From NCBI GenBank assembly GCA_963755915.1, contig CAVWLP010000002.1:1984001-2048000 (forward strand): a stretch of 64,000 nt of DNA, read 5' to 3'. The notes below the pieces were generated by a model. That model did no database searches and was not told where the DNA came from. It worked only from the letters and a program-made list of their open reading frames with translations. The first letter of the stretch is position 1, and every line of letters starts with the position of its first letter. The DNA comes from an uncultured Phycisphaerales bacterium. GTDB lineage: Bacteria; Planctomycetota; Phycisphaerae; Tepidisphaerales; Tepidisphaeraceae. This document shows positions 46,220 to 49,754 of this stretch, piece by piece. A program made the position numbers and the translations under genes.

Positions 46220-46489
46220 GTATTCAACTATCAAGAGACATCACTCGTCGCCGTTCGGCCATTCTTCCACGTATTGGGATGGCGCATTCAGGTGGGCATA
46301 GCATTCATTTCGACCATAGCGCTCCCCCTCTGCTGGATCGTGGTGCGATACCGTGAAGCGCGAGCCATTCGTAATCTTCCGGGCTCATGTCGAAACTGTG
46401 GCTACGATCTCCGTGCCACGCCGGATCGTTGCCCGGAGTGCGGCGCGGTCCCGCCGAAAAGAGAAAGTGATTTCGAACTGACCCGCTAG
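46220..46489 (+). pseudogene. 3' part of a membrane + Zn-ribbon ([16 protein letters not shown]) family gene
   Basis: TM helix followed by [19 protein letters not shown]. An in-frame stop at 46217 cuts off the 5' part. Confidence 0.75.
46467..46489 (-). repeat. IS1-like terminal inverted repeat, degenerate copy 1
   Basis: gtgatttcgaactgacccgctag; 19/23 identical to 47950-47972. Confidence 0.6.
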
Positions 46490-46608
46490 GACGTCGCGAA
46501 ACGTGCACCCCTGCGGGGCCGGGGTTTTGAAGGAAGAGGGATTCCAAGGCCGGCAGGACCCTTAAAATTGTGGCTCGTATCCCCGGCGGTTCACTCGAGT
46601 CATCGAGA

Positions 46609-46637
46609 TTGACAAGTGACAATAATCACTTTACAGA
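46609..46637 (+). promoter_or_regulatory. higBA promoter with overlapping operator
   Basis: TTGACA-17 nt-TACAGA, with an inverted repeat AAGTGA-caataa-TCACTT in the spacer. Confidence 0.7.
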
Positions 46638-46646
46638 GTATCATGG

Positions 46647-46925
46647 ATGATCAGAAGCTTTAAGCATCGCGGTCTCAGGAAGCTGTTTGAGCGCGACGAG
46701 AAGCGGGGAATCCGGCAGGATTTGCTGGAAACTGTCGAGGACATTCTCACTCGCCTGGATGCCGCCACGGGACCGCAAGGCTTGAATCTTCCCGGCTATC
46801 GCCTGCATCCGCTCAAGGGCGATCTAAAAGGTTTCTGGTCGGTGACAGTTCGGGCGAACTGGCGGATCATTTTCCGATTCGAAGGAGAAGACGCCTTTGA
46901 CGTTGAATTGACGGACTATCATTGA
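46647..46925 (+). CDS. higB: HigB (RelE/ParE superfamily) toxin
   Basis: [10 protein letters not shown]...[31 protein letters not shown]...DYH. Confidence 0.95.
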
Positions 46926-46938
46926 AAGGAGAATCCCC

Positions 46939-47241
46939 ATGCCGATGAAAAACCCACCCCATCCGGGTCGAAGCATCCGAAACACCTGCCTTGAGCCTTT
47001 GGGGTTGTCCGTTACTGAGGGGGCCAAGGCGCTTGGGGTGACGCGGCAGGCGCTCAACAATGTCATCAATGGCAAGTCTGGAATCAGCCCGGAAATGGCC
47101 ATTCGACTCACCAAAGCGTTCGGCAGCACGGCGGAGACCTGGTTGCAAATGCAGCTTGCGTATGACCTGGCGCAGGCCAGGAAGCGTGAGGATAAAATTA
47201 AGGTACGCCGTCACCGGACGGATGAAGTTCGCGCCGCTTAG
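46939..47241 (+). CDS. higA: HigA HTH antitoxin
   Basis: [10 protein letters not shown]...[17 protein letters not shown]...ISPEMAIRL...[10 protein letters not shown]. Confidence 0.95.
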
Positions 47242-47306
47242 AAAATGTTTCATAAGCTCGCGCGGCCACTGCTCGCGGCTGGCGATATCACTCATGGGTC
47301 GCTTGA

Positions 47307-47363
47307 GCCGGCATGGCCGATTATGTTTGGGAGATTGAGGAATTGATCGGGCTTCTGGATTAA
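47307..47363 (+). pseudogene. Extreme C-terminal remnant of an IS1-like transposase
   Basis: Reads AGMADYVWEIEELIGLLD*, matching the recalled tail (TPAM.AG..DH.W...E...LL) of IS1-like DDE transposases. An in-frame stop lies just upstream. Confidence 0.65.
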
Positions 47364-47383
47364 CACCCTGTTGGAATGTCAGT

Positions 47384-47953
47384 GTGAAACGCCGCTTATT
47401 CAATGTGATGGCGGGACTGTCGCTGGTGCTTGCGTTCGTTGTATGCATTCAGTGGTATCGCGGCTACCAAGAACAGGATCAATTGTCGATCCGGCGTTAT
47501 GTCGGCGTGCGCGAACATCCGACCCAAGAGCAATTCGGTGTTGTTTGCTGCCAAGGGGCGTTCTGGCTCGAAGCAAGCTGGCAGCGGTCCGACACAATAA
47601 ACGCTGCGCCTTCATTGCTTCTGAATTGGCAGCAGCAGTTGGGCCTTGGCTGGCGCGTGCGCATCGGAACCTACTCCAACCCCTTCTATCCTTCGTTGTT
47701 TCGCACCGGCTGGATTCACAGATTTGGCTTTCACGCTTCCCACGACAACCGTGCCGTCGATGTCGTGATACCCATGTGGTTTTGTGCATGTTGCACACTC
47801 GCGTTGCCCATAGCGTGGATACTCTTTGCTCGAAGCCGTGTCCTTCGAGTGCATTACCCTGGTGCAAAGCCCTGCCCGCAGTGTGGGTATGATCTTCGCG
47901 CCACGCCCGATCGCTGTCCGGAGTGTGGAAAATCCGTCGAAAAAACTATTTGA
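47384..47953 (+). CDS. Two-TM membrane protein with a C-terminal Zn-ribbon ([16 protein letters not shown] family)
   Basis: MKRRLFN..AGLSLVL...W.R.Y N-terminus, variable middle, IPMW TM helix, [19 protein letters not shown]. Confidence 0.88.
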   Translation: [189 protein letters not shown]

Positions 47954-47973
47954 TTTCAAACTGACCCACTACC
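47950..47973 (-). repeat. IS1-like terminal inverted repeat (GGTAGTGGGTCAGTTTGAAATC on the minus strand)
   Basis: ttgatttcaaactgacccactacc; the reverse complement begins GGTAGTG, fitting the IS1-family GGnnnTG end. Confidence 0.7.
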
Positions 47974-48305
47974 GAAATTTCGGGAGACATGACCAGTCGT
48001 TGGCCCCTAAGTCGGGGACCACGGTTCTTGGACGGCACGAAACGCGCACCGCAGCGTGGGTAGGCGATACGCTTTGGGGGGTTGCGGCTAAAACGGGGAG
48101 GGGGATGTATCGTCGTTGTGGTCGCCGATTTGGAACGCCTATGCGTGAGAGTCGCTTCGCAAGTTTTTCGGCTATTTTTAGAAACCCTCACTTTTTCCAC
48201 GCTCCCGACTTCGTTATACTACGCGAACTTACTCACGTCATTCATGGCCAAAGTTCCATTTAGGATTAATCAAGCGGGGCTGACACCAAAGTTCACGGAG
48301 GATAT

Positions 48306-48918
48306 GTGTTCAACCGCCTCGTCTCGTATGTGAGAAAAAAAATATACCTGCACCGGGCGCGCTGGACGGCCCGCCATCTGGCCCCATTCATCGGGCCCAA
48401 CGATCGCGTCCTGGACATCGGCGCCGGCGACTGCCGATTGGATGAGCTGCTTCAGCGAAGAATCGGCTGCGAAATCGTCCCGGTCGATGTCGAGGACTTC
48501 AACGAAACCAATCTGCCGATGACCCTGTTCGACGGCAAGCGGCTTCCCTTCGACGACAACAGCTTCGACGTTGTCCTGCTGATTTTCGTCCTGCATCATG
48601 CCCAGGACGTGAAGGCCTGCCTTGAGGAAGCGCAGAGTCGCCAGGGGAAGCGTCCTGGTTTTCGAGGACGTGACGACAAATCTCTGGGACCGATTCCTCT
48701 TCCGGATTTTTCATCGCTGGCTGGATTGGTGGGAAGGCATTTCCTATCCCTATCGCGAATGGTCGCAATCGCAGTGGACGGAACTGGCCGGCAGCCTCGA
48801 TCTGGGCGTGGCCGCGTGCGTTCCGCTGAGCAGCCAGCTCTGGAAATTTTCCTGCCGGCACGTGGCGTTTGAGTGGAGAAAGCTGAAAGGGGCGGGAGCG
48901 GTTCCATCGGCGGGCTGA
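48306..48918 (+). CDS. Class I SAM-dependent methyltransferase (frameshift near 48635)
   Basis: VLDIGAGD and LPFDDNSFDVV...VLHH, continuing RVARGSVLVFED in the second frame. Confidence 0.85.
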
Positions 48919-48958
48919 AGTGACTGTGTATCGTCTGCGTTTGCGAACACATCGGATT

Positions 48959-49093
48959 TTTAACCGCCAAGACGCCATCAATGCGAAGAAATGCGTTCAA
49001 ACCACGGATTTCACGGATGACGCGGATTTCAAATTCAATCCGTGAAATCCGTGTAATCCGTGGTTCTCTTTTTCTTCGCGCTTGGCGGTTAAA
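48959..49093. repeat. Nested palindromic (REP-like) elements
   Basis: Outer arms tttaaccgccaag / cttggcggttaaa (13 bp perfect). Inner arms of three 9-nt units: aaccacggatttcacggatgacgcggatt / aatccgtgaaatccgtgtaatccgtggtt. Confidence 0.85.
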
Positions 49094-49146
49094 GGCTTTC
49101 GGTCATCAGGTGAGGCTGACCGACTAAGGCGGTACAATTTGCGCCG

Positions 49147-49746
49147 ATGAAACGCTTCTGCCGATGGGTGTTTAATCTTTTGACCCTTCTGTCGCTGCTG
49201 CTTTGTCTGGCGATGGGGGCGGTTTGGATCCGGAGTTACTTCGCTTTTTCCCAACTTGTTGAAGGCCACCATTACAGGATGATTGACGAAAAAACATTGC
49301 GCTGTTCGATTTTCCAGCTCTATCTGTCGAAAGGGGCGTTTCAATACGGAAACGCCTGGTACGACTACAAGGATAAATTTCTCATCCAGGCGATGTTGCC
49401 GGCCGGGAAATCATCCTGGCAATTTTCCCACTCCAATGTCGGCGGAGTTTTGTATATCCCTCCGCCGAAGGGATCGATCGCTGGAGTTGCGATTTCATTT
49501 ACACTTCCCGTGCCGGCGAGGGGGCAAGTCGCACAGGTCGACGCGCGGCTGCCGTATTGGGTGTTGGTGATTGCCTTTGCATTTTTGCCATTCGTTTGGA
49601 TCGCGCGATTCGCTCGTCAAAGGGGGCGAGATCGGCTGAAAGCCGGAGGCTGCTGCGTCCGTTGCGGGTATGACCTACGCGCCACGGCCGACCGATGCCC
49701 GGAGTGCGGGAATATTCCGGCGAAAACGAAAGTAATTTCAGTCTAA
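49147..49746 (+). CDS. Two-TM membrane protein with a C-terminal Zn-ribbon ([16 protein letters not shown] family)
   Basis: [20 protein letters not shown]...WIRSY, variable middle, LPYW TM helix, [25 protein letters not shown] lies just upstream of the ATG. Confidence 0.88.
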   Translation: [199 protein letters not shown]

Positions 49747-49754
49747 CCCACTGC
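49732..49754 (-). repeat. IS1-like terminal inverted repeat, degenerate copy 3
   Basis: gtaatttcagtctaacccactgc; 17/23 identical to 47950-47972; supplies the gene's stop codon. Confidence 0.5.

Follow-up and report, generated by a model that had tools for sequence, protein, structure and literature searches.

Transporter ISs (tISs), insertion sequences (ISs) that carry passenger genes, are a concept that reportedly goes back to Siguier, Gagnevin and Chandler in 2009, and MIC231 of Bacillus cereus is said to have been described as a mobile insertion cassette (MIC) by De Palmenaer et al. in 2004. Passenger-carrying ISs and transposase-less cassettes are both treated as established categories in sections of two published accounts (PMC3129680, PMC9330008), and the ISfinder descriptors reproduced in one table of a third assign to the IS1 family ends of the form GGnnnTG and 8-9-bp target duplications, with a size of 740-1180 bp (PMC10425158, Table 8). 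Here we compare with these descriptions a recurring DNA motif found in a 64,000-nt stretch of DNA from an uncultured Phycisphaerales bacterium (GenBank assembly GCA_963755915.1, contig CAVWLP010000002.1, positions 1,984,001 to 2,048,000), the whole of which is referred to as the window. The motif follows each of three genes for small membrane proteins with a C-terminal Zn ribbon, hereafter ZnR genes, a term used descriptively for the visible CxxC...CxxC spacing with no claim of family membership; the three genes with their motifs are referred to as copies 1, 2 and 3. The motif very probably represents the right terminal inverted repeat (IRR) of an IS1-family element, along with subterminal AT-rich sequence, and complete elements bearing a ZnR gene as cargo were identified in the same genome and beyond it. 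The literature searches made here found no description of a ZnR cargo or of the motif.

All three ZnR genes lie on the + strand and end in (P/A)DRCPECG, with the motif 20-22 nt further on. Copy 2 (47384..47953) encodes a 189-aa protein with a beta-rich domain between two transmembrane (TM) helices and the Zn ribbon at the C terminus, and copy 3 (49147..49746) a 199-aa protein with an ancestral-frame tail and a stop codon that falls within the inverted repeat (IR). Copy 1, which the initial annotation had taken as partial, does hold an open reading frame (ORF) at 46220-46489 (called in pieces as 46220/46274-46489), but is in truth a full-length pseudogene of 143 codons (46058..46489) broken by a single in-frame TGA at 46217-46219. 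The motif 23-mers of copies 1, 2 and 3 (gtgatttcgaactgacccgctag, ttgatttcaaactgacccactac and gtaatttcagtctaacccactgc) start 22, 20 and 21 nt past the last Gly codon, and those of copies 1 and 3 match that of copy 2 at 19/23 and 17/23 positions. Translation confirmed that the motif is read in three distinct frames: as gat ttc gaa ctg acc in copy 1 (DFELT; tail SDFELTR*), as ttt caa act gac cca (FQTDPL) beyond the stop codon of copy 2 (KTI*), and as att tca gtc taa in copy 3 (ISV*). In copies 2 and 3 the motif extends beyond the stop codon. The initial annotation had reported these ORFs, identities, spacings and frames, all of which were reproduced. Delimited as an IRR and compared with the 21-mer ATTTCAAACTGACCCACTACC, the motif lies at 46470..46490 in copy 1 (atttcgaactgacccgctagg; four of 21 positions mismatched, tip decayed), at 47953..47973 in copy 2 (atttcaaactgacccactacc; no mismatches, with the tip ...CCACTACC at 47973) and at 49735..49755 in copy 3 (atttcagtctaacccactgct; five of 21 mismatched and decayed), always on the + strand. 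An 18-mer search allowing up to three mismatches returned two matches in the window (copies 1 and 2, both on the + strand; 0.06 expected) and missed copy 3 at this stringency, and none of 100 shuffled controls gave two or more matches. Within five mismatches the 21-mer occurs at 46 of 13.25 million genome positions (both strands), and from this genome-wide count the chance of a site in any 90-nt interval is ~3e-4. Recurrence of the motif behind ZnR genes is not due to chance.

Searching the 6.63-Mb genome that holds the window (G000; its contigs are abbreviated C2 and C3) with the 17-nt tip CAAACTGACCCACTACC at up to two mismatches identified 22 sites in four classes: behind ZnR genes; at the two inverted ends of an IS of 2,442/2,443 bp; at the ends of 88-143-bp elements resembling miniature inverted-repeat transposable elements (MITEs) with 8-bp duplications, for example C3:1297899-1297986 (duplication TAATCCGG); and behind other small ORFs. 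The two copies of the 2.44-kb IS (C2:1476047-1478488 and C2:2155904-2158346) are flanked by the 8-bp duplications CGGCGATT and CAATATTA and encode a 277-aa protein; throughout these elements one unbroken ORF of 274-277 aa encodes the transposase. The best NCBIfam match of this transposase is to IS1 (NF033558; E 1e-15, 58 bits, below the curated cut-off of 100), the gene of a 3.6-kb element described below reaches 24.5 bits with Pfam PF03400 (DDE_Tnp_IS1; cut-off 24.1; match at C2:3553599-3553727), and database relatives carry the JGI / NCBI name 'IS1 family transposase'. These matches suggest a weak and distant homology to IS1 transposase. The element ends read GGTAGTG, GGTACTG, GGTAATG and GGTGGTG and fit GGnnnTG; the IS1-like ends proposed in the initial annotation are found, accordingly, on elements that encode an IS1-type transposase and are bounded by 8-bp duplications. 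The IS1 family of ISfinder also comprises single-ORF and longer subgroups. A target preference is evident as well, in that the flanks GAAATTTCGG, GGAATCCGG and CGAAATCG recur, and the flank of copy 2, GAAATTTCGG, resembles the preferred target. The 250-300-nt flanks of the 2.44-kb IS (L003), searched for an empty site, gave no match in five sister genomes.

In complete elements the ZnR gene lies inside the element, between the IRs. One such element in G000 (C2:3550800-3554413; 3,614 bp) is bounded by perfect IRs (GGTAGTGGGTCAGTTTG) and the 8-bp duplication CGAAATCG and comprises, from left to right, the left IR (IRL), a 95-aa ORF, Peptidase_M78/ImmA and XRE genes on the opposite strand, a 216-aa ORF, the transposase, a 177-aa ZnR and the IRR; in the extracted locus (L050, element at 100-3713) the transposase spans 2314-3138, the ZnR gene 3160-3693 and the IRR 3693-3713. 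The ZnR begins 21 nt past the transposase and its stop codon lies in the IRR. A distance of 20-21 nt between transposase stop and ZnR start was found in five units, and the IR tip is always oriented away from the ZnR gene. A shorter version of this element (A), with a left end at TCAAGTATAAGGGTCAGT overlapping the transposase ATG, was rejected: that boundary is the one of duplication-less 1,408-bp copies in the sister genome G001, and in G000 the element in fact extends over 3.6 kb, from one perfect IR to the other. A second complete element, of 3,241 bp, was identified in a Phycisphaerales metagenome-assembled genome (L063), with ZnR as its last gene, the stop TGA within the IRR and an 8/8 duplication (GGCCTCCG). 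Metagenomic contigs additionally yielded a 620-bp IRL-ZnR-IRR cassette with an 8/8 duplication (L134; GTAACCGC) and a 627-bp cassette that retains the last transposase codons and has a 7/8 duplication (L137). The order transposase-ZnR-IR also occurs in genome G014 (L036), on which no conclusion rests. Intact elements possessing left IR, transposase, ZnR passenger, right IR and target duplication, of the kind for which the initial annotation had proposed to look, were found in this way. The 2.44-kb IS and the 3.6-kb element also have in common an ORF of ~95-99 aa beside the left IR, ending in ...KGGxARAKxLSxxxRxEIAKKAAxxRW, and where the 3.6-kb element has its XRE and ImmA/M78 genes, an XRE-like helix-turn-helix reading frame could be read off the translation of the 2.44-kb IS; the ORFs on the left-IR side may constitute a cargo module common across the IS family.

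The same right end is present with other cargo or with none, and the IR is therefore part of the IS, ZnR being one among several cargos of the slot between the transposase, or its remnant, and the right end. G001 possesses an 84%-identical transposase in two 1,408-bp copies, without duplication, which have the same right end and another membrane-protein cargo; in G022 (L033) the IRR follows directly after the transposase; and in G000 the IRR occurs with other cargo or none at sites 1388574, 3505583 and 3507868. Small predicted membrane ORFs of 104 and 106 aa occupy the slot at the C2:3505583 and C2:3507868 right ends, the other membrane-protein cargo of G001 (L012) is located within a 244-aa open frame, and these other slot ORFs likewise end ~20 nt from the IR tip.

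The commonest ZnR tail, TIPxKKEIISN*, is encoded by ...AAA GAA ATA ATT TCA AAC TGA CCC ACT ACC, so that the IR itself supplies the last ZnR codons and the stop. The tail of copy 2, KSVEKTI* (KxVEKTI*), is a 1-nt-deletion, -1 frameshifted version of TIPSKKEIISN*, that of copy 1 uses the third frame, and all three frames are present among metagenome units. The initial annotation had named conservation ending at the stop codon as an outcome that would speak against it; conservation instead reaches the IR tip, with 83-98% identity over the last 41 nt between four units, and in the same four units identity at third codon positions is only 32-74% within the invariant Zn ribbon next to it. Whether or not they carry ZnR, right ends have a common core of ~21 nt with an AT-rich stretch before it. 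Conservation of the tail is at the level of DNA and not of protein, and judging from these alignments the 41-nt right end is probably the transposase-binding end.

To account for these observations, we propose that the element moves by means of its DDE transposase, making 8-bp target duplications, and that in one lineage of such elements, in Planctomycetota of Phycisphaerae type, the slot between transposase and right end is occupied by a small two-pass membrane ZnR gene. Because its last codons and stop fall within the IR, the ZnR tail would be constrained as a transposase-binding DNA site, and it tolerates frame changes. The system occurs in three forms, namely an autonomous transporter IS comprising transposase and ZnR, a transposase-less IRL-ZnR-IRR cassette of ~620 bp that could be moved in trans, and a decayed right-end unit. 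All three window copies belong to the last of these forms, each with a different ZnR body joined to a common Zn ribbon, tail and IRR.

To place these forms in a wider setting, ZnR genes, right ends and transposases were surveyed across genomes and metagenomes. G000 encodes 33 ZnR genes with a C-terminal ribbon, among which nine have a transposase or transposase remnant within 150 nt upstream, eight have an IR (up to five mismatches) at the stop codon, and 12 have one or both of these IS hallmarks. Within the same family the transposase was detected in 19 of 24 other genomes, and in none of 16 genomes from other families of the class. Of 13 genomes belonging to the genus, eight contained the exact pattern of CPECG, 15-45 nt and IR (none with a reversed control), and in a sample of the family at one genome per genus, 3 of 61 contained it when the IR core was made slightly more stringent (AAACTGAYCCAC). 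A metagenome scan for the ZnR end plus IR identified 32 contigs, 11 of which have an upstream transposase match (one full-length and ten partial); the 'gene + IR' units that the initial annotation expected elsewhere do occur, both in the genus and in metagenomes. Scanning species-representative genomes revealed 594 transposase relatives in many phyla, including Acidobacteriota, Proteobacteria, Bacteroidota, Verrucomicrobiota and Nitrospirota. Among the best 80 of these 594 relatives (L051-L130), where the IR tips are nearly invariant (AAACTGAnCCAnTACC), 57 loci have an IRL-IRR pair 0.8-7 kb apart, with 8/8 duplications in 54 pairs, a 7/8 duplication in one and at most 5/8 in two. These cross-phylum elements are all 1.8-5 kb long and therefore all carry cargo, mostly 1-3 kb located left of the transposase, and only one of the best 80 loci (L063) carries ZnR.

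Tandem ZnR arrays with intervening transposase remnants were also observed in G000 (C2:3540900-3543400, C3:1338900-1342000, C2:1624600-1626140 and C2:3505500-3509700). The junction '...KKEIAAT* / NHAAQ...' is conserved among their remnants, which recurrently start at aa ~225-232 and are old (dS >1 between some), with the same truncation point in many genomes. The possibility that such remnants are selected small proteins was considered and set aside, the three recent array copies giving dN/dS of 0.85-4.6 from few changes; old remnant pairs give 0.09-0.5, a divergence that may predate the truncation.

Each window copy has a distinct set of relatives. The copy 1 unit (46035-46490) lacks the transposase remnant that is present in the Z22 unit (C2:3508809-3508358), to which it is 85% identical over 46035-46488; this homology begins at GCGCGGTACAAT, 23 nt ahead of the ATG, and runs to the IR tip, and Z22 has TGG where copy 1 has TGA. 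The copy 2 unit (47306-47987) is 91-94% identical at the nucleotide level to C3:1340802-1341477, and includes on the + strand an IS1-like transposase remnant at 47307..47363, detected by tblastn (query aa 257-275, 74% identity), which comprises the last 18 codons (AGMADYVWEIEELIGLLD) plus stop and leaves 20 nt to the ZnR start codon, the spacing seen in the intact element. Copy 3 is 82% identical in nucleotide sequence to its G001 ortholog over the coding sequence, the ortholog possesses a similarly decayed IR (caatctgacccgctgct) at the equivalent place, and the copy 3 IRR overlaps the 3' end of a convergent gene (49738-51039, - strand). Values of dN/dS in three pairs range over 0.27-0.39 (0.35 for the copy 2 pair, 0.27 for copy 3 against G001), and the ZnR genes have therefore evolved under purifying selection. 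The window copies are one-ended, solo right-end units with neither left IR nor duplication, and we infer that they arrived by transposition and subsequently lost their left parts. The initial annotation's proposal, in which ZnR spreads as right-end cargo and leaves 'gene + IR' units behind, is supported in its main points, and for the window copies themselves transposition is the probable route of arrival.

A number of observations weigh against this reading, both as regards the origin of the window copies and the reach of the IS. No left IR was found in the window by an 18-mer search allowing up to three mismatches, the closest approaches to an IRL upstream of the three genes differ from it at 6-10 of 20 positions, and target duplications are absent around all three units. 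At the position of copy 2, G001 holds a different, unrelated ZnR gene between flanks that are 90-95% identical, with no transposase remnant or IR detected (up to four mismatches to the 17-nt tip), as if one cassette had replaced another, perhaps through recombination instead of insertion. Outside the Zn ribbon, IS-linked ZnR proteins have only ~30-35% identity to one another, and gene conversion could have added the tail plus IR to resident paralogs. The transposase reaches 58 of the 100 bits set by NCBIfam and is a single ORF rather than an InsA/InsAB' pair. No IS hallmark is evident for 21 of the 33 ZnR genes of the genome, and in the wider ZnR family (760 database matches, with the ribbon in 116 of the best 120) only ~5 of these 116 homologs have the IS-type tail, the rest ending in unrelated tails. 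The IS accounts for part of the ZnR family's spread and not for the whole, and the repeated occurrence of the family, which the initial annotation had ascribed to the element, is attributable to it to that extent. As a separate matter, a left-IR candidate at 47370-47389 (6/20 mismatches) was discarded, being a site that overlaps the ZnR start codon and is also found downstream of a paralog's transposase remnant.

The alternative that survives best is recombination, in which the ribbon block, and the MKR...SLLL start, would serve as a homology patch, and gene conversion or crossover would graft 'Zn ribbon + tail + IRR' onto resident paralogs, so that at least some copies were never complete elements. 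We regard this as improbable while still deserving weight. It would accommodate ZnR bodies that are ~30% identical despite near-identical tails and IRs, the sharp rise in identity over the last 41 nt, the IR-less ZnR gene amid conserved flanks in G001 and a window that has neither left IR nor duplication. However, a 3' graft leaves unexplained the transposase remnant upstream of copy 2 at the canonical 20 nt, the ribbon, with third codon positions 32-74% identical, is a poor substrate for conversion, and copies 1 and 2 match their closest paralogs over the whole gene and not only at the 3' end. ZnR-bearing elements and cassettes that are complete, with duplications, likewise argue for transposition of ZnR as cargo of an IS1-type element.

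It is highly improbable that ZnR genes are instead the target of an IS or MITE that prefers their 3' ends and inserted repeatedly alongside them, ZnR being no cargo. The element's target preference and recurring flanks would fit such insertions, but the IR tip ...CCACTACC faces away from the gene, so that the element body includes ZnR; ZnR lies between IRs in three complete elements with duplications; and the transposase remnants are located upstream of ZnR, not downstream. Least credible of all is the reading that the motif has no tie to mobile DNA and is conserved for regulation or termination at the 3' side of a paralog family. This would suit a partly untranslated motif at paralogs' 3' ends, but the inverted motif bounds elements with 8-bp duplications, including some without ZnR, no Rfam family was found in 45500-50500 (the sole match at E <=1 being a chance microRNA-precursor hairpin elsewhere), and no G+C-rich hairpin or T run was seen on reading the motif, no terminator scan having been made.

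The cargo itself was characterized from its sequence and predicted structure. In an AlphaFold2 model of ZnR of good confidence (mean pLDDT 83), ~100 residues form a beta-rich domain flanked by two TM helices, the first at the N terminus and the second followed by the ribbon, and the topology is predicted to be N-in/C-in, with the C-terminal Zn ribbon cytoplasmic. Against the Pfam models Zn_ribbon_3, DZR and Zn_Ribbon_1 the best score was 20.8 bits (cut-off 27), and NCBIfam gave no matches. The model had no Foldseek match in the PDB at E <=0.001, the best Z in a wide VIA-align search was 4.0, and a protein Atlas search with ZnR returned only hypothetical Planctomycetota clusters. As a speculative and rather unlikely extension, the slot genes (ZnR and other small membrane genes) might represent a module that serves the element or has been repeatedly domesticated, with start, ribbon and IS end acting as a shuffling scaffold that seeded and diversified much of the lineage's ZnR paralogs, the variable periplasmic domain diversifying.

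All three units are located within a 6.8-kb accessory island (window ~44240-51080) comprising an oxidoreductase-like ORF, a cupin, the ZnR units, higBA, a methyltransferase and a 433-aa membrane protein. The island is absent from G003, G010 and G011, where the flanking genes are 0.05-0.9 kb apart, and is partly present in G001, where copy 1 is absent. Between units 1 and 2, a HigB-like toxin (PF05015, E 5e-17) and an HTH-XRE antitoxin are encoded at 46647-46925 and 46939-47241, and the syntenic place in G001 retains higA and the 3' end of higB. The methyltransferase gene at 48306-48918 (SAM-dependent, Methyltransf_11) has an apparent frameshift near 48620-48640 and is covered by two overlapping ORFs. 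A nested perfect hairpin at 48955-49095 (predicted -73.5 kcal/mol) is a REP-like palindromic repeat, given that parts of it recur as sub-motifs 26-75 times across the genome; in Rfam it has only a chance match to a microRNA precursor.

These results explain a recurring and unannotated motif, as well as the odd C-terminal tails, in three frames, of a large family of hypothetical Planctomycetota proteins, and identify a family of IS1-type transporter ISs whose IR tips are conserved in many phyla. They also illustrate clearly how the coding end of a passenger gene can form part of the putative transposase-binding end, and show that a mobile element drives part of a ZnR paralog expansion. On a practical level, the 17-nt tip can be used as a marker of accessory islands in these genomes.

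Compared with the IS1 family, the elements have in common a DDE transposase best matched by IS1 models, GGnnnTG ends and 8-bp duplications, but differ in encoding one ORF of 274-277 aa as opposed to the two-ORF (InsA, InsB) programmed-frameshift arrangement, and in a length, when bearing cargo, of 1.4-5 kb as against 740-1180 bp, which is due to the cargo carried. The MITEs of the same IS in this genome, at 88-143 bp, have the same IR tips and 8-bp duplications, and are unlike the cargo-bearing elements in having no gene and a central G+C-rich hairpin instead. With MICs, the L134 and L137 cassettes share IS IRs that flank a passenger without a functional transposase, presumably mobilised in trans, and both IRs plus a duplication with no transposase are found in these two and in none of the three window copies, which are not intact cassettes and have no left IR; the IS1-like affiliation also differs from that of IS231. 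As in other tISs, the 3.6-kb element, L063 and the 57 cross-phylum loci hold passenger genes between their IRs, and they depart from the known examples in that the passenger in the first two is a Zn-ribbon membrane gene of Planctomycetota type, whose reading frame ends within the IRR. The ZnR-bearing IS1-type elements fall within the established tIS and MIC categories, and represent no new kind of system.

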